From: Escherichia coli
GTDB taxonomy: Bacteria; Pseudomonadota; Gammaproteobacteria; Enterobacterales; Enterobacteriaceae
Assembly (NCBI RefSeq): GCF_044324785.1
Contig: NZ_CP172129.1
Direction: 5' to 3' (one strand)
Length of the DNA stretch: 64,000 bases
This document shows positions 7,767 to 59,125 of this stretch, piece by piece (positions within the stretch are counted from its first letter, which is position 1; each line of letters starts with the position of its first letter). The notes under the pieces are model-generated. The model made no database searches and was not told where the DNA came from. It saw nothing but the letters and a program-made list of their open reading frames with translations. The position numbers were made by a program, and so were the translations under genes.

Positions 7767-8093
7767 ATGACTAAAAATACTCGTTTTTCCCCCGAAGTCC
7801 GTCAGAGGGCGATTCGTATGGTTCTGGAAAGTCAGGGCGAATATGACTCACAGTGGGCGGCAATTTGTTCCATTGCCCCAAAGATTGGCTGTACACCGGA
7901 GACTCTGCGTGTCTGGGTACGCCAGCATGAGCGGGATACCGGAGGCGGTGATGGCGGGCTCACCACCGCTGAACGTCAGCGTCTGAAAGAGCTGGAACGT
8001 GAAAATCGTGAACTGCGCCGCAGTAACGATATCCTTCGCCAGGCTTCCGCTTATTTTGCGAAGGCGGAGTTCGACCGCCTCTGGAAAAAATGA
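7767..8093 (+). CDS. IS629 transposase OrfA
   Basis: 108-aa HTH protein [19 protein letters not shown]… matching IS629/IS1203 OrfA. Confidence 0.85.
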
Positions 8094-8980
8094 TGCCACT
8101 GCTGGATAAGCTGCGTGAGCAGTACGGGGTCGGACCGCTATGCAGCGAACTGCATATTGCCCCGTCAACGTATTACCACTGTCAGCAACAGCGACATCAT
8201 CCGGATAAACGCAGTGCCCGTGCGCAGCGCGATGACTGGCTGAAGAAAGAGATACAGCGCGTATACGATGAAAATCACAAGGTATACGGTGTGCGTAAAG
8301 TCTGGCGTCAGTTGTTACGGGAAGGTATCAGAGTGGCCAGATGCACTGTGGCACGTCTCATGGCGGTTATGGGACTTGCCGGTGTTCTCCGTGGTAAAAA
8401 GGTCCGTACGACCATCAGCCGGAAAGCCGTTGTCGCAGGCGACCGCGTAAACCGTCAGTTCGTGGCAGAACGTCCTGACCAGTTGTGGGTGGCTGATTCT
8501 ACTTACGTCAGCACATGGCAGGGGGTCGTCTATGTGGCGTTCATCATTGATGTGTTTGCCGGATACATCGTGGGGTGGCGGGTCTCATCGTCTATGGAAA
8601 CGACATTCGTGCTGGATGCTCTGGAGCAGGCGTTATGGGCCCGTCGACCGTCCGGCACAGTCCATCACAGTGATAAAGGTTCTCAGTATGTATCGTTGGC
8701 CTACACACAGCGGCTTAAGGAAGCCGGATTACTGGCATCAACAGGAAGTACAGGCGACTCGTATGACAACGCGATGGCGGAGAGCATCAATGGCCTTTAC
8801 AAAGCGGAGGTAATACACCGTAAGAGCTGGAAAAACCGTGCAGAAGTGGAACTGGCCACACTCACGTGGGTGGACTGGTATAACAATCGACGATTGCTGG
8901 AAAGGCTGGGCCATACTCCTCCGGCAGAAGCAGAAAAAGCTTATTATGCTTCCATCGGAAACGATGATCTGGCAGCCTGA
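8090..8980 (+). CDS. IS629 transposase OrfB (DDE integrase-core domain)
   Basis: 296-aa ORF overlapping orfA by 4 bp; DDE region …[10 protein letters not shown]…[15 protein letters not shown]…. Confidence 0.85.
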
Positions 8981-15254: not shown

Positions 15255-15633
15255 GTTTTCTTGTGCATAGAAAACCCCCAGCTAGGCTGGGGGTTCCGGA
15301 AAGCTTTCAGCTTTGAGCCAGTTATTAAAACCCCTTTTGATTTGTTAAAACACCTTGCGGTCTGGCAACTGCAAGTGTCAAACAAGAAATCAAAAGGGGG
15401 TCCCAATGGGGAACGAAAAGAGCTTAGCGCACACCCGATGGAACTGTAAATATCACATAGTATTTGCGCCAAAATACCGAAGACAGGTGTTCTACAGAGA
15501 GAAGCGTAGAGCAATAGGCTGTATTTTGAGAAAGCTGTGTGAGTGGAAAAGTGTACGGATTCTGGAAGCTGAATGCTGTGCAGATCATATCCATATGCTA
15601 CAATGTTTGTCAAAGCTCAGTGAAAATGTCTAA
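15255..15633 (+). mobile_element. IS200 remnant: left-end hairpin plus the first ~75 codons of tnpA (15406-15633), 3' truncated
   Basis: Hairpin CCCCCAGCTAGGCTGGGGG followed by an ORF MGNEKSLAHTRWNCKYHIVFAPKYRR… matching IS200 TnpA, which diverges after …ADHIHML. Confidence 0.75.
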
Positions 15634-23533: not shown

Positions 23534-23792
23534 TTAATATACTTCTGGGCTCCCTACAGTTGTTTTTGCATAGTGATAAGCCTCTCTCTGAGGGAGGAAA
23601 TAATCCTGTTCAGCGATGTCTGCCAGTCGGGGGGGCTGCATTATCCACGCCCGAGGCGGTGGTGGCTTCACGCGGGGATGGGCAGATTGATCTGATATGC
23701 AACCGACGACGACCAGCGGCAACATCATCACGCAGAGCTTCATTTTCAGATTTGGGCCACCTTTTGATTTCTCGTTTAACTTTTGCAGTCAC
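23534..23792 (-). pseudogene. Lambda-type lysis-cassette remnant: Rz (i-spanin) C-terminal fragment with embedded Rz1 (o-spanin) lipoprotein ORF
   Basis: Minus-strand ORFs …GRRRLHIRSICPSPREATTASGVDNAA… (Rz-like) and MKLCVMMLPLVVVGC…KPPPP…WIMQPP… (Rz1-like, proline-rich lipoprotein) in overlapping frames, as in lambda. Confidence 0.65.
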
Positions 23793-24355
23793 CAGACTGT
23801 GATTTATTTTAACAAATCAATAGCTTTCATAAAATTCTCGAAGCTGAAAGCTTAACTGAACCAACCAGCCTGGCTGGTGTTTTCTAAAGACAAAAAGGCC
23901 ATCAGCAAAACACTGATAGTCTGAATCACCTTTATCAATCATGTATGAAGAAAATATGCGCAATTAGTTGACAGTGATTATCATTTTCATTAAAAAGAGC
24001 GCGTAGCATTCTTATTTCATGAGGAAATTTACCCGCCAACAACCTGAGTAGCGAAAGCTGTTCATCCCCAATATTTTTGCTGGCGGGTTCTTTTTTCTAC
24101 TGTCCTCCTCCCCAGAGGAAGCATTCCCATTAATCATTACTGGCGAGGAGGCAAGAGAAAAAGTCGGTTCTTTGTCCCTAAATAACAGCATCATTTCAGT
24201 CCATGCAAAATCTGATTTACCAGCTCACATAATAACCTGATGATACACAGTGTAAGTTCACAGAGATATTGCAATTGCCTCCGGATAAGTAAGGGGAGAT
24301 TGCACTATGCAAATGCAGCACCTGAGGTTGGCTATCCTAAGCAGCCGATTATGCG

Positions 24356-38041: not shown

Positions 38042-38244
38042 CTTGTCTCCTAAAAGCGCTATTTCAGACCATCAGTTGCACACAGTAGATGATAATGATA
38101 ATCATTTACTGTATAATTGGCAATATATGGGGATTCATAGTCATTTCTGAGATAATATACGTTAGGCCTTCTCTCCCGTACGGAAATCACTTGTTTTCCG
38201 TAAATTACCTGAATCTTAATCCCTGAGCTGCGGCTAGCTGTGGA

Positions 38245-38582
38245 ACTCACAAAAGCTGACCGGGCCGTGGCACAGCCTCTCTGCTGGCAGAACAGCGTAC
38301 TGCAGAAGTCGTCGTACTGCCGCTGGTCCCGGCATCAGGTCTGCCCGCAGATGGCACTTCTGCCACTGATCTGCCGGTGGAGCTGAACGGCATGACATAT
38401 CAGGCCTGCCGTGGGGATTTTGTGGTGCGCCTCGACGGCAGCACCTGTCTGCAGTTATAGAATAAAGAAGGCGGGGAGGTACGCAGGGAGGGCGATCCGC
38501 TGGAAGTGGCGTAGTGGCTGTAGGCCTGTAATGATGCAGGAATAGAAGTTCGTGTACAGGTTAATGAAAGCATCACCCCGTA
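38245..38582 (+). pseudogene. Decayed copy of the 3' half of the gene at 47720-48310, with in-frame stops
   Basis: DNA aligns with 47955-48310 at high identity but carries stop codons (…CAGTTATAGAATAAA…, …GTGGCGTAGTGGCTGTAGGCC…). Confidence 0.6.
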
Positions 38583-38600
38583 AAAACATGCCGGCACGGT

Positions 38601-38909
38601 TTACACATCATTCCATGGTGGCAGCCGGTTAACTTTCCTGCGCCACCAGTGGAAAGAGGCCATGAGCAGTCCGAACAAAAAACCACTCGTGATACTTATA
38701 ATAATGGCCTCACCTGCTACCATTCCTGACGGCCCCCAGTACATAAACCACATTGCACATCCCCAGGAAATACCCCATAAGCCCCCCATCAGCAGCGTAA
38801 CCTGCCAGAACGGCATAAAGGGCAATGGCGGAAGCCGGATACCCAGCCGCCAGAGAATACGCAGCAGAGGAGGAGCATAATTACTCCGCCACATCTTTTT
38901 GCTGTCCAT
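38601..38909 (-). CDS. Small membrane protein, paralog of 48330-48587
   Basis: 102-aa ORF with hydrophobic segments; 28 aa longer than the paralog at 48330-48587. Confidence 0.45.
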   Translation of the reverse strand: MDSKKMWRSNYAPPLLRILWRLGIRLPPLPFMPFWQVTLLMGGLWGISWGCAMWFMYWGPSGMVAGEAIIISITSGFLFGLLMASFHWWRRKVNRLPPWNDV

Positions 38910-39076
38910 CAGGGCAATTGCCCGGGCTTTTTTTGCTCAAAAGTCACAGGAGCACCTCCGTTCCATGATGTAAACGTGACACAACTTATTGTTATTGATT
39001 ATTATTATCATACCGTGATTATGTTGTCATGCACCTGTACACTGATAAAAGAAAGGGAGAACAGGAGGCTGGCTGA

Positions 39077-39384
39077 ACAACCAATCCGTTCGTCCAGTTC
39101 AATGGCGGCTATCAGGTTCTGCTCCGCAATGTACTCACGAATGCGCTTCCTGTCCTGGCTGGTCAGCATGGTCCAGAATATCTCCATCATTTACCGGCGA
39201 CTTTCCTGCTCATTTCATCCCGCCATGCAGCAGCGGAAGATTCGACCATGTCATGGGGAAGCACATCGCCGCGCTCGAGTTGCTGACGTCCTGCCTCAAC
39301 CTGGTCACGGAACCAGGTATTATGCTGCCGTTCCACGGTCTGGCGCATAAAATCCCGGATTAACTGAGAGCCATTACGGTCCAT
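39077..39384 (-). pseudogene. Remnant of the ParE/RelE-type toxin and RHH antitoxin pair (toxin truncated after ~40 codons; antitoxin frameshifted at its 5' end)
   Basis: DNA aligns with 52190-52580; the toxin ORF runs into unrelated sequence; a 1-bp difference (GCAGGGCCAT versus GCAGCGGCCAT) removes the antitoxin start. Confidence 0.65.
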
Positions 39385-40065: not shown

Positions 40066-41340
40066 TTGTTTCGCCAGGATGCTTTAGAAAACAGAAAAAT
40101 GAAGTGGCAGGGACGGGCAATATTACTTCCCGGAATACCACTGTGGTTAATCATGCTGGGAAGCATTGTGTTTATTACGGCATTTCTGATGTTCATTATT
40201 GTTGGTACCTATAGCCGCCGTGTTAATGTCAGTGGTGAGGTCACAACCTGGCCAAGAGCTGTCAATATATATTCAGGTGTACAGGGATTTGTTGTCAGGC
40301 AGTTTGTTCATGAAGGGCAGTTGATAAAAAAAGGGGATCCTGTTTATCTGATTGACATCAGTAAAAGTACACGCAATGGTATTGTCACTGATAATCATCG
40401 CCGGGATATAGAAAACCAGCTGGTTCGTGTGGACAACATTATTTCCCGTCTGGAAGAAAGTAAAAAAATAACGCTAGATACCCTGGAAAAACAACGTCTG
40501 CAATACACAGATGCGTTCCGTCGCTCATCAGACATTATACAGCGTGCAGAGGAAGGGATAAAAATAATGAAAAATAATATGGAGAATTACAGATACTATC
40601 AGTCAAAAGGACTGATTAATAAAGATCAATTAACTAACCAAGTTGCATTATATTATCAACAACAAAACAACCTTCTCAGTCTGAGCGGACAAAATGAACA
40701 AAATGCCCTGCAGATAACCACTCTGGAGAGTCAGATTCAGACTCAGGCAGCAGATTTTGATAATCGTATCTATCAGATGGAACTGCAACGACTCGAATTG
40801 CAGAAAGAACTGGTTAACACTGATGTGGAAGGCGAAATCATTATCCGGGCGTTGTCTGACGGGAAAGTTGACTCCCTGAGTGTCACTGTAGGGCAAATGG
40901 TCAATACCGGAGACAGCCTTCTGCAGGTTATTCCTGAGAACATTGAAAACTATTATCTTATTCTCTGGGTCCCGAATGATGCTGTTCCTTATATTTCGGC
41001 TGGTGACAAAGTGAATATTCGTTATGAAGCCTTCCCCTCAGAAAAATTTGGGCAGTTCTCTGCTACGGTTAAAACTATATCCAGGACTCCTGCGTCAACA
41101 CAGGAAATGTTGACCTATAAGGGAGCACCTCAAAATACGCCGGGTGCCTCTGTTCCCTGGTATAAAGTCATTGCGACGCCTGAAAAGCAGATAATCAGGT
41201 ATGACGAAAAATACCTCCCTCTGGAAAATGGAATGAAAGCCGAAAGTACACTATTTCTGGAAAAAAGGCGTATTTACCAGTGGATGCTTTCTCCTTTCTA
41301 TGACATGAAACACAGTGCAACAGGACCGATCAATGACTAA
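40066..41340 (+). CDS. cvaA: CvaA, colicin V secretion membrane-fusion protein (HlyD family)
   Basis: 424-aa ORF (TTG start as in the track) with N-terminal TM and HlyD-type adaptor; precedes cvaB. Confidence 0.85.
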
Positions 41341-42109
41341 CAGGAATTTCAGACAAATTATAAATCTGCTTGATTTGCGCTGGCAACGTCGTGTTCCGGT
41401 TATTCATCAGACGGAGACCGCTGAATGTGGACTGGCCTGCCTAGCAATGATATGCGGTCATTTTGGTAAGAATATTGACCTGATATATCTTCGCCGGAAG
41501 TTTAATCTCTCTGCCCGTGGAGCAACCCTTGCAGGAATCAATGGAATAGCGGAGCAACTGGGGATGGCCACCCGGGCTCTTTCACTGGAGTTGGATGAAC
41601 TTCGAGTCCTCAAAACGCCGTGTATTCTCCACTGGGATTTCAGTCACTTCGTCGTTCTGGTCAGCGTAAAGCGTAACCGTTATGTACTGCATGATCCGGC
41701 CAGGGGCATAAGATATATCAGCCGGGAGGAAATGAGCCGATATTTTACAGGCGTTGCACTTGAGGTCTGGCCCGGAAGTGAATTCCAGTCGGAAACCCTG
41801 CAGACCCGCATAAGTCTTCGTTCACTGATTAACAGTATTTACGGTATTAAAAGAACGCTGGCGAAAATTTTCTGTCTGTCAGTTGTAATTGAAGCAATCA
41901 ATCTGCTAATGCCGGTGGGGACACAGCTGGTTATGGATCATGCTATTCCTGCGGGGGACAGAGGGCTACTGACGCTAATTTCTGCTGCTCTTATGTTTTT
42001 TATATTACTCAAAGCTGCAACGAGTACGCTGCGCGCATGGTCTTCACTGGTTATGAGCACGCTCATCAATGTACAGTGGCAGTCGGGGCTGTTCGATCAT
42101 CTTCTCAGA
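41333..42109 (+). pseudogene. cvaB: cvaB 5' portion (C39 peptidase domain and first TM segments), interrupted by IS903
   Basis: [20 protein letters not shown]…ETAECGLACLAMI… reading frame ends at the IS903 left end after …LFDHLL. Confidence 0.85.
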
Positions 42110-43166
42110 GGCTTTGTTGAATAAATCGAACTTTTGCTGAGTTGAAGGATCAGATCACGTATCTTCCCGACAACGCAGACCGTTCCGTGGCAAAGCAAAA
42201 GTTCAAAATCACCAACTGGCCCACCTACAATAAAGCCCTCATCAACCGTGGCTCCATAACTTTCTGGCTGGATGATGAAGCTATTCAGGCCTGGTATGAG
42301 TCAGCAACACCTTCTTCACGAGGCAGACCTCAGCGCTATTCTGACCTTGCCATCACTACTGTGCTGGTCATTAAACGCGTATTCAGGCTGACCCTGCGGG
42401 CTGCGCAGGGCTTTATTGATTCCATTTTTTCTCTGATGAACGTTCCGCTACGCTGCCCGGATTACAGCTGTGTCAGCAGGCGGGCAAAGTCGGTTAATGT
42501 CAGTTTCAAAACGCCCACCCGGGGTGAAATCGCACACCTGGTAATTGATTCCACCGGGCTGAAGGTCTTCGGTGAAGGCGAGTGGAAAGTCAAAAAGCAT
42601 GGCCAGGAACGCCGCCGTATCTGGCGTAAGCTGCATCTCGCCGTTGACAGTAAAACACATGAAATCATCTGCGCTGACCTGTCGCTGAACAACGTTACGG
42701 ACTCAGAGGCCTTCCCCGGGTTAATCCGGCAAACCCACCGGAAAATCAGGTCAGCCGCCGCCGATGGCGCTTACGATACCCGGCTATGTCACGATGAACT
42801 GCGGCGTAAGAAAATCAGCGCGCTTATCCCTCCCCGAAAAGGTGCGGGTTACTGGCCCGGTGAATATGCAGACCGTAACCGTGCAGTGGCTAATCAGCGA
42901 ATGACCGGGAGTAATGCGCGGTGGAAATGGACAACAGATTACAACCGTCGCTCGATAGCGGAAACGGCGATGTACCGGGTAAAACAGCTGTTCGGGGGTT
43001 CACTGACGCTGCGTGACTACGATGGTCAGGTTGCGGAGGCTATGGCCCTGGTACGAGCGCTGAACAAAATGACGAAAGCAGGTATGCCTGAAAGCGTGCG
43101 TATTGCCTGAAAACACAACCCGCTACGGGGGAGACTTACCCGAAATCTGATTTATTCAACAAAGCC
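42110..43166 (+). mobile_element. IS903 (IS5 family), 1057 bp, flanked by 9-bp target-site duplication CTTCTCAGA
   Basis: Terminal inverted repeats GGCTTTGTTGAATAAATCG… at 42110 and …TTTATTCAACAAAGCC ending at 43166; direct repeats CTTCTCAGA at 42101-42109 and 43167-43175. Confidence 0.85.
42142..43110 (+). CDS. IS903 transposase
   Basis: 322-aa ORF filling the element; DDE-type transposase. Confidence 0.8.
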   Translation: MKDQITYLPDNADRSVAKQKFKITNWPTYNKALINRGSITFWLDDEAIQAWYESATPSSRGRPQRYSDLAITTVLVIKRVFRLTLRAAQGFIDSIFSLMNVPLRCPDYSCVSRRAKSVNVSFKTPTRGEIAHLVIDSTGLKVFGEGEWKVKKHGQERRRIWRKLHLAVDSKTHEIICADLSLNNVTDSEAFPGLIRQTHRKIRSAAADGAYDTRLCHDELRRKKISALIPPRKGAGYWPGEYADRNRAVANQRMTGSNARWKWTTDYNRRSIAETAMYRVKQLFGGSLTLRDYDGQVAEAMALVRALNKMTKAGMPESVRIA

Positions 43167-44495
43167 CTTCTCAGACTACCGCTGGCGTTTTTTGAACGCC
43201 GAAAATTAGGTGATATCCAGTCACGTTTTGACTCCCTTGACACATTGAGGGCCACATTTACCACCAGTGTGATCGGGTTCATAATGGACAGCATTATGGT
43301 TGTCGGTGTTTGTGTGATGATGCTGTTATACGGAGGATATCTCACCTGGATAGTTCTCTGCTTTACCACAATTTACATTTTTATTCGTCTGGTGACATAC
43401 GGCAATTACCGACAGATATCAGAAGAATGTCTTGTCAGGGAGGCCCGTGCCGCCTCCTATTTTATGGAAACATTATATGGTATTGCCACGGTAAAAATCC
43501 AGGGGATGGTCGGAATTCGGGGGGCACACTGGCTTAATATGAAAATAGATGCGATAAATTCGGGTATTAAGCTAACCAGGATGGATTTGCTCTTCGGAGG
43601 AATAAATACCTTTGTTACCGCCTGTGATCAGATTGTAATTTTATGGCTGGGAGCAGGCCTTGTGATCGATAATCAGATGACAATAGGAATGTTTGTAGCG
43701 TTTAGTTCTTTTCGTGGGCAGTTTTCGGAAAGAGTTGCCTCTCTGACCAGTTTTCTTCTTCAGCTAAGAATAATGAGTCTGCACAATGAGCGCATTGCAG
43801 ATATTGCATTACATGAAAAGGAGGAAAAGAAACCTGAAATTGAAATCGTTGCTGATATGGGGCCAATATCCCTGGAAACCAATGGTTTAAGCTATCGTTA
43901 TGACAGTCAGTCAGCACCGATATTCAGTGCTCTGAGTTTATCTGTAGCTCCGGGGGAAAGTGTGGCTATAACTGGTGCTTCCGGTGCGGGAAAAACCACA
44001 TTAATGAAAGTACTATGTGGACTATTTGAACCTGATAGCGGGAGGGTACTGATAAATGGTATAGATATACGCCAAATTGGAATAAATAATTATCACCGGA
44101 TGATAGCCTGTGTTATGCAGGATGACCGGCTATTTTCAGGCTCAATTCGTGAAAATATCTGTGGTTTTGCAGAGGAAATGGATGAAGAGTGGATGGTAGA
44201 ATGTGCCAGAGCAAGTCATATTCATGATGTTATAATGAATATGCCAATGGGATATGAAACATTAATAGGTGAACTTGGGGAAGGTCTTTCTGGCGGTCAA
44301 AAACAGCGTATATTTATTGCACGAGCCTTATACCGGAAACCAGGAATATTATTTATGGATGAGGCAACCAGTGCTCTTGATTCAGAGAGTGAACATTTCG
44401 TGAATGTTGCCATAAAAAACATGAATATCACCAGGGTAATTATTGCACACAGAGAAACAACGTTGAGAACTGTTGATAGAGTTATTTCTATTTAA
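43167..44495 (+). pseudogene. cvaB: cvaB 3' portion (remaining TM domain and ABC ATPase)
   Basis: Frame resumes …RLPLAFFERRKLGDIQSRF… after the IS903 duplication; Walker A GASGAGKTT, signature LSGGQKQR. Confidence 0.85.
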
Positions 44496-47170: not shown

Positions 47171-47462
47171 ACTCACACGTCCTTTAAATACAGATGACAC
47201 TTGCCGGAATTATACAGCCCAGATTCACTTGCTATGTTTCAGAATAGCTTATAAGCCGCACTTTTACCGATACTCAGCAACAAATCAGGTCTGGATCCAC
47301 TTCAGCCGGAAACCGGATCTGCGCGGCGGGGAACGGGCATACAATATGATAATTAAGCAACTTATATAAAACCATATCTGATATTATTAATAATAAATAA
47401 CACACAAATCATGCGGGATATGATTTTTATTTGTCAGAACATTATCAGATGGAGCGTGCAGG

Positions 47463-47723
47463 ATGGATGAAGAAAGGGTGTTTTCACTCAGCTATGAACA
47501 ACTGACCCGGTTTGCGGAAAAACGCATCCGGGAATGCAATCTGGACAGCCAGGGCGTAACTTATCTCTGCGAGTCAGCCAAAGCCGGAGCTGTGCTGATC
47601 TTCTGGCATGAACTGGCCATAAATGGCTATGCCTCAATGAATGCCATAAAGAGACAGGAGATCATTGACGCCGACCATCAGCGCCTCAGAAAGCTCATCT
47701 GGCCGGAGGATGACTGGAAATGA
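47463..47723 (+). CDS. Hypothetical protein (86 aa), first gene of an overlapping two-gene unit
   Basis: ORF with ATGA stop/start overlap to the next gene. Confidence 0.4.
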   Translation: MDEERVFSLSYEQLTRFAEKRIRECNLDSQGVTYLCESAKAGAVLIFWHELAINGYASMNAIKRQEIIDADHQRLRKLIWPEDDWK

Positions 47724-48310
47724 CTCAGAGCCGCCGACCGTCGCCACTGCAGCGAAGAATGCTGATTGTGCTGGCTGCCCTTGATGAAAAACGGCCAGGA
47801 CCCGTGCTGACGCGGGACATAGAACGGGTGCTGGAGCGAAGCGGGGAAGCCCCAGTCTACGGGCCAAACCTGCGCGCCTCCTGCCGTCGTCTGGAGGATG
47901 CCGGCTGGCTGCGTACCCTGCGCGCTCCGAACCTGCAGCTGGCAGTGGAGCTGACGGACGTCGGCCGGGCCGTGGCACAGCCTCTGCTGCTGGCAGAACA
48001 GGACCGCCTCCGGGCAGAACAGCGTGCGGCAGAAGTCGTCGTACTGCCGCTGGTCCCGGCAGCAGGTCTGCCCGCAGATGGCACTTCTGCCACTGATCTG
48101 GCGGTGCAGCTGAACGGCATAACGTATCAGGCCTGCCGTGGGGATTTTGTGGTGCATCTCGACGGCAGCACCTGTCTGCAGTTATGGAATAAAGAAGGCA
48201 GGGTGGTACGCCGGGAGGGCGATCCGCTGGAAGTGGCGCAGTGGCTGCAGGCCTGTCACGATGCAGGAATGGAGGTTCGCGTACAGATAAATGAAAGTGC
48301 CGCTCCGTAA
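47720..48310 (+). CDS. Hypothetical protein (196 aa), GC-rich
   Basis: Coupled to the upstream ORF; a decayed second copy exists at 38245-38582. Confidence 0.45.
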   Translation: MTQSRRPSPLQRRMLIVLAALDEKRPGPVLTRDIERVLERSGEAPVYGPNLRASCRRLEDAGWLRTLRAPNLQLAVELTDVGRAVAQPLLLAEQDRLRAEQRAAEVVVLPLVPAAGLPADGTSATDLAVQLNGITYQACRGDFVVHLDGSTCLQLWNKEGRVVRREGDPLEVAQWLQACHDAGMEVRVQINESAAP

Positions 48311-48329
48311 GAACACGCCTGTGCACGGT

Positions 48330-48587
48330 TTACACATCATCCCATGGTGGCAGCCGGTTAACTTTCCTGCGCCCCCAGTAGATAAACCACATTGCACATC
48401 CCCAGGAAATGCCCCATAAGCCCCCCGTCAGCACCGTGACCTGCCAGAACGGCATAAAGGGTAATGGCGGAAGCCGGATACCCAGCCGCCAGAGAATACA
48501 CAGAAGAGGAGGGGCATAATTGCTCCGCCACATCTTTTTGCTGTCCATCAGGGCAATGGCCCGGGCTTTTTTCTGCTCAAAGGTCAC
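48330..48587 (-). CDS. Small membrane protein (85 aa), paralog of 38601-38909 with a 28-aa in-frame deletion
   Basis: Hydrophobic ORF; aligns with 38601-38909. Confidence 0.4.
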   Translation of the reverse strand: MTFEQKKARAIALMDSKKMWRSNYAPPLLCILWRLGIRLPPLPFMPFWQVTVLTGGLWGISWGCAMWFIYWGRRKVNRLPPWDDV

Positions 48588-48715
48588 AGGAGCACCTCCG
48601 TTCCATGATGTAAACGTGACACAGCTTATTGTTATTGATTATTATTATCATGCTGTGGTTATGTTGTCATGCATCAGTACACTGACAAAAGTGCAAAAGA
48701 AAGGAAAACAGGCAG

Positions 48716-51138: not shown

Positions 51139-51987
51139 TCAGATTTTCAGCCGTGCCTGTTCCTGCAGCAGTTCCAGATGATATGCAGCAATAGCGTTTA
51201 CCACCCCTGCCGTCATCCGTGCGTCGGCGATCGCTGAGTGTGCCTGCCCTTCCCAGGTCAGTCCGGCCTGGCTGGCAGCACAGGCCAGTGAAATCGTGCC
51301 ATAGCGGTTGGTGGCCCCATAATATCCTGCAGCCAGCTCCATCGCACAATATACCGTCAGTTCTTCCAGCCAGTCAGCCGGATCGCTATGTGCGGCAGCA
51401 GTCTGTTTCAGAATGCGGATGTCGAACCGGGCATTAAAGATAATTACTGGTCGGTCCCCGATTGCATGACGCAGTTGCCGCGCCACATCTGTCCATGATG
51501 GTGCGCCGCAGAGAGCCTGCTCGCTGATACCATGCACAGCGGCGGCCTGCGCCCCGATGGCGACCGTGGGCTTCAGCCTGGTTTCAAATACCACCTGACC
51601 GGACGCATCGGTCAGGCCGATTTCCAGAGCTTCCGCGGTATTGTCCAGTCCTGTCGTTTCAGTATCCAGAAAGAGCGGTGCCAGACTCAGCCAGTCATAT
51701 GCCTGCCGTGCCATCCGGCCACTGGTGCTGTTAAGTCTGGATAAAACGGAAAGTCGCTGGCCAGCCAGAAGTTGTTTACTCGTCAGTGGGCGTTTCTCAC
51801 GCATCGGAACACAGTCTGCAATTCGGTATACAGCGAACCTGCCACCATAAGTGTTTTTATACCACTTAACCGGCTCAGCACCGGGGGCTGGCTTCATTCT
51901 GAATTCATCGCGCAGCCGTTCTTTCGAGAAACACCTGTCTTCGGCAATCGCCTGCGCACGTCTGGTGGCCAGCTCATCATTATTCAT
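51139..51987 (-). CDS. DnaQ-like 3'-5' exonuclease (DEDDh) domain protein with an N-terminal extension
   Basis: 282-aa ORF with Exo I motif (…LFLDTETTGLD…) and later H/D motifs (…HSAIADARMTA…). Confidence 0.6.
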   Translation of the reverse strand: MNNDELATRRAQAIAEDRCFSKERLRDEFRMKPAPGAEPVKWYKNTYGGRFAVYRIADCVPMREKRPLTSKQLLAGQRLSVLSRLNSTSGRMARQAYDWLSLAPLFLDTETTGLDNTAEALEIGLTDASGQVVFETRLKPTVAIGAQAAAVHGISEQALCGAPSWTDVARQLRHAIGDRPVIIFNARFDIRILKQTAAAHSDPADWLEELTVYCAMELAAGYYGATNRYGTISLACAASQAGLTWEGQAHSAIADARMTAGVVNAIAAYHLELLQEQARLKI

Positions 51988-52032
51988 GGTTCTTGCATCT
52001 CCGTCAGACCTTTTTATATCCGGACAGCCCCT

Positions 52033-52314
52033 CTATGGCCACTTCTGTGCAGTATGCAATACACGCAGGATATACACTTTTCCCCACTGGCTGTCGACCT
52101 CATAAACCAGAACAAAATGCGGGTGAATAACCAGTTCCCGGGTACCTTCCACACGACCGTTGCGGCCTTTATACGGCTGCCCGGCCAGGCTGCTGGCTGA
52201 ATAACCAATCCGTTCGTCCAGTTCAATGGCGGCCATCAGGTTCTGCTCCGCAATGTACTCACGAATGCGCTTCCTGTCCTGGCTGGCCAGCATGGTCCAG
52301 AATATCTCCATCAT
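52033..52314 (-). CDS. RelE/ParE-superfamily type II toxin
   Basis: 93-aa ORF overlapping the upstream antitoxin by 4 bp; ParE/RelE-like C-terminus (…HPHFVLVYEVDSQWGKVYILRVLH…). Confidence 0.65.
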   Translation of the reverse strand: MMEIFWTMLASQDRKRIREYIAEQNLMAAIELDERIGYSASSLAGQPYKGRNGRVEGTRELVIHPHFVLVYEVDSQWGKVYILRVLHTAQKWP

Positions 52315-52580
52315 TTACCGGCGACTTTCCTGCTCATTTCATCCCGCCATGCAGCAGCGGAAGATTCGACCATGTCATGGGGAAGCACATCGCCGCGCTC
52401 GAGTTGCTGACGTCCTGCCTCAACCTGGTCACGGAACCAGGTATTATGCTGCCGTTCCACGGTCTGGCGCATAAAATCCCGGATTAACTGAGAGCCATTA
52501 CGGTCCATGCTTTTTGCAGCGGCCATAAAAGCATCCTTCAGTTCAGCGTCAATTCTTAAACTCATATTAACCTGTGCCAT
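52311..52580 (-). CDS. Ribbon-helix-helix type II antitoxin
   Basis: 89-aa ORF MAQVNMSLRIDAELKDAF… upstream of the toxin. Confidence 0.6.
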   Translation of the reverse strand: MAQVNMSLRIDAELKDAFMAAAKSMDRNGSQLIRDFMRQTVERQHNTWFRDQVEAGRQQLERGDVLPHDMVESSAAAWRDEMSRKVAGK

Positions 52581-58496: not shown

Positions 58497-58651
58497 GGCT
58501 TGTTATGACTGTTTTTTTGTACAGTCTATGCCTCGGGCATCCAAGCAGCAAGCGCGTTACGCCGTGGGTCGATGTTTGATGTTATGGAGCAGCAACGATG
58601 TTACGCAGCAGGGCAGTCGCCCTAAAACAAAGTTAACCCGGAACCAAAATT
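58497..58651. other. attI1 recombination site and cassette promoter region (5'-conserved segment)
   Basis: …GCCCTAAAACAAAGTTA… junction immediately before the first cassette. Confidence 0.7.
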
Positions 58652-59125
58652 GTGAAAGTATCATTAATGGCTGCAAAAGCGAAAAACGGAGTGATTGGTT
58701 GCGGTCCACACATACCCTGGTCCGCGAAAGGAGAGCAGCTACTCTTTAAAGCCTTGACGTACAACCAGTGGCTTTTGGTGGGCCGCAAGACGTTCGAATC
58801 TATGGGAGCACTCCCTAATAGGAAATACGCGGTCGTTACTCGCTCAGCCTGGACGGCCGATAATGACAACGTAATAGTATTCCCGTCGATCGAAGAGGCC
58901 ATGTACGGGCTGGCTGAACTCACCGATCACGTTATAGTGTCTGGTGGCGGGGAGATTTACAGAGAAACATTGCCCATGGCCTCTACGCTCCATATATCGA
59001 CGATTGATATTGAGCCGGAAGGAGATGTTTTCTTTCCGAATATTCCCAATACCTTCGAAGTTGTTTTTGAGCAACACTTTAGCTCAAACATTAACTATTG
59101 CTATCAAATTTGGCAAAAGGGTTAA
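58652..59125 (+). CDS. dfrA5: Trimethoprim-resistant dihydrofolate reductase cassette, DfrA5-like (possibly DfrA14)
   Basis: 157-aa ORF with GTG start, [40 protein letters not shown]…; first cassette after attI1. Confidence 0.8.

Follow-up and report, generated by a model that had tools for sequence, protein, structure and literature searches.

The 64,000-nucleotide stretch of Escherichia coli DNA analysed here (NCBI RefSeq assembly GCF_044324785.1, contig NZ_CP172129.1; hereafter the window) belongs to a ColV/ColIa-type, pS88-like virulence plasmid and carries a pair of small overlapping genes, ydfA and ydeA, that are the subject of this work. The 1.5 kb around the locus is 100% identical to many IncFIB/IncFIC plasmids, and the gene order matches that of pS88: cia, imm, ybaA, ydeA, ydfA, an acetyltransferase gene and then cvi (PMC3438092). 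In the naming used for ColIb-P9 and R64, the 86-amino-acid (aa) open reading frame (ORF) at 47463-47723 on the plus strand is ydfA, the 196-aa ORF at 47720-48310 on the same strand is ydeA, and the 85-aa ORF at 48330-48587 on the minus strand is ybaA, a DUF6404 gene that the annotations of pS88 and further plasmids also call by this name. Both GenBank and the NCBI annotation pipeline PGAP label ydfA and ydeA 'hypothetical protein'. As a sequence-only reading of this DNA had noted, the 86-aa and 196-aa ORFs overlap by ATGA (47720-47723) and are GC-rich, with a measured GC content of 0.56-0.67. That reading called the third gene convergent in its text and divergent in its title; the text was right, as ybaA converges with ydeA. 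Shine-Dalgarno sequences precede both plus-strand genes, GGAG at 47451-47454 for ydfA and GGAGG at 47705-47709 for ydeA, the latter 10 nt before the ydeA ATG. Transcripts of the two genes have both been detected in pS88 (PMC3438092), and our literature search found no functional study of plasmid ydfA, ydeA or DUF6404. E. coli also has a chromosomal ydeA, which encodes a major facilitator superfamily arabinose/sugar exporter, whereas the plasmid gene of that name encodes a predicted soluble winged-helix protein of 196 aa; a genome-wide association study of IncK2 plasmids read a plasmid 'ydeA' as the arabinose exporter, seemingly through this name collision (PMC12987596).

Consistent with both ORFs being genuine genes, the median ratio of non-synonymous to synonymous substitution rates (dN/dS) across 19 loci was 0.39 for ydfA and 0.26 for ydeA, showing that both are under purifying selection. 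Within ydeA, the ratio was 0.24 for the winged helix, 0.65 for the linker and 0.21 for the C-terminal domain. Comparing ydeA with a 68%-identical homologue (locus L006) gave 40, 40 and 92 substitutions at codon positions 1, 2 and 3. A stop/start overlap (ATGA, GTGA or TAATG) is retained in 16 of the 19 loci, spanning about ten genera of Enterobacterales that include Escherichia, Citrobacter, Enterobacter, Klebsiella, Raoultella, Buttiauxella, Phytobacter and Pluralibacter. The sequence-only reading had allowed that a 230-aa ORF on the opposite strand (47634-48326, minus) might be the real gene. This ORF is not conserved, whereas ydfA and ydeA are conserved in relatives: its second codon position coincides with the third, most variable position of ydeA, its frame contains one to five stops in 14 other loci, including one that is 95% identical (L004), and a Pfam search with it gave no match. 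It is therefore not a gene but a GC-rich shadow of ydeA. Together, the codon-position bias, the dN/dS ratios, the conserved overlap and the broken antisense frame confirm ydfA and ydeA as a translationally coupled two-gene unit, as had been proposed.

The structure model of YdeA (mean predicted local distance difference test score, pLDDT, 86.6) has a winged helix-turn-helix fold at residues 9-78 that leads into a long helix (80-104), and a variable linker connects this to the C-terminal domain (127-190), a compact β5-α-β fold. In the putative recognition helix, N50, L51, R52 and C55 are invariant. YdeA reached the threshold of no curated family, its best matches being AbiEi_4 (E 0.025; 15.1 bits against a 25-bit cut-off) and PaaX (E 0.008; 16.8 against 24.8 bits). 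The C-terminal domain had no significant match in the PDB, and sequence searches of the PDB with the whole of YdfA and YdeA likewise gave nothing significant. YdfA had no match in Pfam, PADLOC, NCBIfam or the PDB; for the two proteins together, PADLOC, PHROGs and NCBIfam returned only weak JetA matches (E 0.02) and phrog_19460, a family with no known function. A second model, built with AlphaFold2 and paired sequences for a chimera in which a linker joined YdfA to the YdeA C-terminal domain, gave YdfA as a confident three-helix bundle (helices 11-24, 32-55 and 61-79; pLDDT 85-94) and reproduced the β/α fold of the C-terminal domain. The YdeA family is small, comprising 213 clusters at 50% identity among 1.84 billion proteins. 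Its commonest architecture is the 190-200-aa form, which also occurs in distant clades with a natural end after '…QINE'; longer members of 303-428 aa add a helical C-terminal extension, of which the 214-aa IncI1 YdeA retains a short stub. A 350-aa protein encoded downstream in IncFII plasmids was considered as a split-off version of this extension and rejected, as the two share no similarity.

We then aligned the 330 bp upstream of ydfA from the 19 loci and found that about 250 bp are conserved despite differing flanking genes, a control region that is a new observation. Its core is a 17-bp perfect palindrome, ATCATAT-N3-ATATGAT, which occurs up to three times, at the fixed positions -129, -93 and -56 from the ydfA ATG. 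With up to two mismatches allowed, there were 35 matches in the 19 upstream regions of 220 bp and one in the remaining 286 kb of these loci, an enrichment of about 2,400-fold. Palindrome 1 (-129) has been deleted in the window and in one other locus (L027), and across the whole window the sole matches with two or fewer mismatches are palindrome 2 at 47371-47387 (ACCATATCTGATATTAT), found at -93 in nearly all loci, and palindrome 3 at 47408-47424 (ATCATGCGGGATATGAT), found at -56 in many. A consensus scan placed a candidate sigma-70-like promoter at 47397-47424 on the plus strand (ATAACA, a 16-nt spacer and TATGAT), with its -10 element inside palindrome 3. The right half of palindrome 2 also contains an extended -10-like element, TG-a-TATTAT, which reads TG-n-TAT(G/T)AT across loci. 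For the IncI1 plasmid pUA1135, an independent prediction with the program BPROM has transcription starting 69 nt before ydfA (PMC12111858), which fits palindrome 2 serving as the -10 element and palindrome 3 following shortly after the start.

The outer edge of the control region is a conserved non-coding block at 47293-47351, TCC(G/A)-N14-CGGATCTG-N3-GGCGGGAAAC…ATATGAT (TCCG in the window), which is present in 18 of the 19 ydfA loci although the cargo flanking it differs. Neither RNA covariation nor excess folding stability was detected for this block or for the conserved upstream inverted repeat, and Rfam gave no match at E ≤ 1 in the region. The half-sites of the palindrome are 10 bp apart, or one helical turn, the spacing that a dimeric winged-helix protein should require. 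Inverted repeats with the same half-site also lie upstream of distant ydeA homologues that lack a neighbouring ydfA (AATCAC-N7-GTGATT in L017 and AATCAT-N3-ATGATT in L014), which favours YdeA over YdfA as the protein that would bind them.

The conserved palindromes over the promoter point to an autorepressed ydfA-ydeA operon. We propose that the pair forms a self-contained, translationally coupled and autoregulated cassette. YdeA would be a dimeric winged-helix DNA-binding protein that binds the 17-bp palindromes, two of them in the window and three in most relatives. Because the palindromes cover the -35 element, the -10 element and the early transcribed region of the ydfA promoter, this binding would repress the operon, together with any genes co-transcribed behind ydfA-ydeA in other plasmids. 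YdfA, kept in fixed proportion by translational coupling, would be an accessory three-helix partner or modulator of YdeA. We put the probability of this explanation at roughly 55%. Several points weigh against it. YdeA has no Pfam family and only sub-threshold matches, and its most conserved part is the C-terminal domain, which might carry the main activity. In the chimera model, which left out the winged-helix half, the packing of YdfA against the C-terminal domain was not confident (predicted template modelling score 0.44). The -35 element of the candidate promoter is poorly conserved and the transcription start is a prediction. Finally, the downstream neighbour of ydeA in the window is convergent, so that nothing is co-transcribed with the pair there.

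The surroundings of the pair differ widely between plasmids. ydfA-ydeA is part of the accessory DNA that varies among IncF- and IncI-type plasmids of Enterobacterales, with a ResD-like tyrosine recombinase gene 1-7 kb away, and comparisons of IncI1 plasmids have described the stretch as hypervariable and ydeA as a recombination breakpoint (PMC8004404). Downstream of ydeA, IncFII plasmids encode the 350-aa protein and a ProQ/FinO protein, IncI1 plasmids carry ibfA and a ProQ-like gene, further loci encode members of a 158-164-aa family, and the colicin-Ia/Ib backbone has the convergent DUF6404 gene. Reverse transcription PCR in pUA1135 (IncI1) showed that ydfA, ydeA, ibfA and proQ are co-transcribed (PMC12111858). 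In Citrobacter and Enterobacter plasmids (L006, 7744-10407; also L021 and L023), the genes form an overlapping four-gene operon of ydfA, a long ydeA (406-419 aa), a DUF6884 gene and an SNase nuclease gene; the DUF6884 protein matches the PADLOC model of DpdC at 7e-41, and the operon is possibly a defence-like module, one that is absent from the window. On the divergent side of ydfA are genes for RES or HEPN/RES proteins, YobI-like nucleoside triphosphatases (NTPases) of 1039-1285 aa, DUF3800, CcdB or a methyltransferase. The YobI-like P-loop NTPase genes (L033, 3501-7358; also L034 and L035) recall a 1273-aa gene of IncI1 plasmids that convert phage type, where it is reported to stand in place of the Col genes 'from within ydeA to rfsF' (PMC8004404). 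The gene immediately upstream of ydeA also varies: in Edwardsiella hoshinae (L028, 7737-7998), the ORF overlapping the ydeA start encodes an unrelated 85-aa protein with no homology to YdfA, and the upstream partner of ydeA may thus be replaceable.

This setting suggests a bolder explanation, in which ydfA-ydeA is the regulatory head of a plasmid cargo hotspot, a two-protein sensor and repressor that silences interchangeable defence or competition genes until a signal arrives. The signal, such as plasmid entry or phage infection, would be received by the YdeA C-terminal domain or by YdfA, and the silenced genes would lie on either side and include IbfA, the DpdC-like protein and its nuclease, RES/HEPN proteins, the YobI NTPase and genes of the colicin region. 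On this view the conserved block at 47293-47351 would be the boundary at which the cargo slot is exchanged. We regard this explanation as tentative and on balance doubtful. Some neighbours are defence-like, many others are not, and their orientation varies, in a small sample of 23 loci and a few plasmids. If the explanation were true, the pair would belong to a family of defence-island regulators not described before, comparable to BrxR/CapW or CapH-CapP and present on about 5% of sequenced plasmids.

We also considered whether the pair is a toxin-antitoxin or addiction module, in which YdeA would be a DNA-binding antitoxin (as are HigA, MqsA and AbiEi) and YdfA a small toxin encoded upstream, or the reverse. 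The locus has the shape of such a module, a small overlapping two-gene operon with palindromic repeats, and it sits among toxin-antitoxin and defence genes (ccdB, RES, HEPN/RES and yacAB). The weak AbiEi_4 match points in the same direction, as does mosaicism: relative to one locus (L003), ydeA is 96% identical and ydfA only 62%. However, each gene occurs alone and intact, which weakens this idea. In L043 (2501-2758) and L044 (2501-2764), ydeA has been cut off by the insertion sequences (IS) IS91 or IS26, and ydfA, with all the residues that are invariant in its family, persists with an intact promoter; such plasmids are natural 'ydeA knock-outs'. Conversely, three loci (L010, L014 and L017) have ydeA homologues without ydfA. 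Moreover, neither protein matches a toxin or antitoxin family in Pfam, PADLOC, NCBIfam or the PDB, and no gene for an AbiEii-type nucleotidyltransferase is adjacent. An addiction module is thus improbable.

Less probable still is a role in plasmid maintenance, with YdeA acting less as a transcription regulator than as a TubR- or ParR-like adaptor that organises DNA by assembling on the palindromes, which would serve for pairing or as a kind of centromere. The regular spacing of the three palindromes (36-37 bp) and a location near replication, resolution and partition genes would fit such a role. Nevertheless, there are just two or three sites and they overlap the promoter of the pair itself, no conserved gene for an NTPase (TubZ, ParM or ParA) adjoins ydfA-ydeA in any locus, plasmids with IS-truncated ydeA exist, and the host plasmids have separate ParM and ParA systems.

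The sequence-only reading had joined ydfA, ydeA and the DUF6404 gene into one functional unit with a membrane protein, for example a membrane toxin controlled by two soluble proteins, and we consider this very unlikely. The three genes are contiguous in about 1,480 plasmids of PLSDB, and part of the arrangement recurs within the window. By contrast, DUF6404 lies beside ydeA in none of the 23 loci from other Enterobacterales genera, and about 1,070 plasmids carry ydfA-ydeA without an adjacent DUF6404 gene. Overall, PLSDB has ydfA-ydeA in 3,919 plasmids (near-complete in 2,556) and DUF6404 in 2,505 (2,057); outside a single backbone lineage of close relatives, DUF6404 is not commonly linked to ydeA. 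The DUF6404 gene also has the opposite orientation and a promoter region of its own.

The second occurrence in the window does not argue for a three-gene unit either. Positions 47933-48382 match 38228-38653 at 85% with 24 gap positions, and 48371-48691 match 38732-39051 at 94%. The arrangement had been described as duplicated whole at 38245-38909, yet the repeat takes in no more of ydeA than its final 378 bp, along with the DUF6404 gene and some 100 bp on its far side; there is a single copy of ydfA, of the control region and of the 5' third of ydeA. The second ydeA (38228-38583, plus strand) is indeed a pseudogene as claimed: it consists of the 3' part alone, which has suffered a deletion and contains three in-frame stops, and its PGAP note reads 'frameshifted; internal stop; missing N-terminus'. 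The membrane protein gene had been called intact, which did not survive alignment to full-length homologues. Both window copies belong to the DUF6404 family of ColIb-P9-type YbaA, well above its threshold (Pfam PF19942; 85.8 and 108 bits against a 27.6-bit cut-off), and neither has the full 115 aa with two hydrophobic segments. Copy 1 (48330-48587) matches profile positions 1-76 of 115 (E 3.7e-24) and has lost the second hydrophobic stretch through an in-frame deletion of 30 codons (residues 73-102 of 115). Copy 2 (38601-38948, minus strand) matches positions 14-114 (E 4.5e-31); a 1-bp deletion puts its first 13 codons out of frame, leaving a 102-aa ORF that starts at an internal ATG (38601-38909). 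Thus, copy 2 keeps DUF6404 after ydfA/ydeA function has been lost, and in copy 1 ydfA-ydeA stands beside a DUF6404 lacking 30 residues.

Both copies share the layout ydeA, DUF6404, cargo, yacC, yacB and yacA, one with colicin Ia and the other decayed beside the ColV operon. Plasmid pMEI152 shows a less decayed layout without colicin (a partial ydeA, DUF6404, a 160-aa gene, yacC, yacB and yacA), which in the second copy of the window has shrunk to partial ydeA, DUF6404 and partial yacB and yacA. The yacB and yacA remnants lie at 39008-39384 beside DUF6404 copy 2, and intact yacA, yacB (ParE toxin family) and yacC (RNase_T exonuclease) lie at 51139-52580, beyond the colicin Ia gene, indicating that the same backbone segment is present twice in the window. 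Common descent and plasmid recombination thus account for the two copies, which do not show selection for a three-gene unit. The DUF6404 gene, whose family has no known function, belongs to the backbone of the colicin-Ia/yacABC segment and stands outside the ydfA-ydeA unit; the second copy at 38.2-39.0 kb is a decayed relic of the same backbone.

Equally hard to credit is that the pair is a decaying, functionless remnant, the truncated head of an ancestral operon of ydfA, long ydeA, a DpdC-like gene and a nuclease gene, as the 303-428-aa forms of YdeA, the four-gene operon of Citrobacter and Enterobacter plasmids, the extension stub in IncI1 YdeA and the recombination breakpoint in IncI1 ydeA (PMC8004404) could suggest, because the 190-200-aa form is under purifying selection, is the commonest form and ends naturally in distant clades too, and is intact in about 2,500 plasmids.

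Elsewhere in the window, the gene for the colicin V exporter, cvaB, is interrupted: an insert carrying an IS5-family transposase ORF (42142-43110; Pfam DDE_Tnp_1_5, 3e-40) separates 41315-42124 from 43245-44495, and export of ColV from this plasmid is therefore probably inactive; the otherwise identical reference plasmid NZ_CP023363 does not have this insert of about 1.07 kb. Rfam matches at gathering level (8048-8164, 15273-15396, 23761-23882 and 58586-58658) comprise an ALIL pseudoknot, which is an IS3-type frameshift element, two copies of the small RNA STnc490, one on each strand, and a class 1 integron leader (attI/AAC_AAD).

ydfA-ydeA is present in about 3,900 of the 72,556 PLSDB plasmids (5%), including IncF and IncI carriers of ColV virulence and extended-spectrum β-lactamase resistance, and wherever it occurs its annotation goes no further than 'hypothetical protein'. 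The proposed operators and repressor make this anonymous gene pair experimentally accessible, and if YdeA controls transcription into the variable slot, the expression of phage-defence genes such as ibfA would be affected. The analysis also corrects three possible misreadings, namely the three-gene unit, the antisense ORF and the ydeA name collision.

In its predicted DNA-binding fold YdeA invites comparison with repressors of the MarR, PadR and HxlR types, yet it falls outside their Pfam families. It differs from them in its additional β5-α-β C-terminal domain, which has no relative in the PDB, in the small, translationally coupled gene for a three-helix partner upstream, and in the very small size of its family. 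AbiEi of the AbiE system, which acts as a type IV toxin-antitoxin and abortive infection system, autoregulates through inverted repeats in its promoter. YdeA resembles AbiEi in its length of about 200 aa, in its arrangement of an N-terminal winged helix and a C-terminal domain and in its weak match to AbiEi_4; unlike AbiE, neither the window nor any related locus has an adjacent gene for the AbiEii (DUF1814) nucleotidyltransferase, and the upstream gene here instead encodes a helical partner of 86 aa. Compared with BrxR/CapW and CapH-CapP, YdeA has no WYL domain in Pfam searches and no protease partner, and its neighbour in the window is convergent. The likeness lies in the arrangement, as in each case a helix-turn-helix regulator, here a predicted one in a two-gene cassette, stands beside interchangeable cargo, some of it defence-like (here IbfA, the DpdC-like protein with SNase, RES and the YobI NTPase) and has inverted repeats in its promoter. 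ydfA-ydeA is thus most likely a previously uncharacterised plasmid cassette of a familiar kind, with a winged-helix autoregulator.

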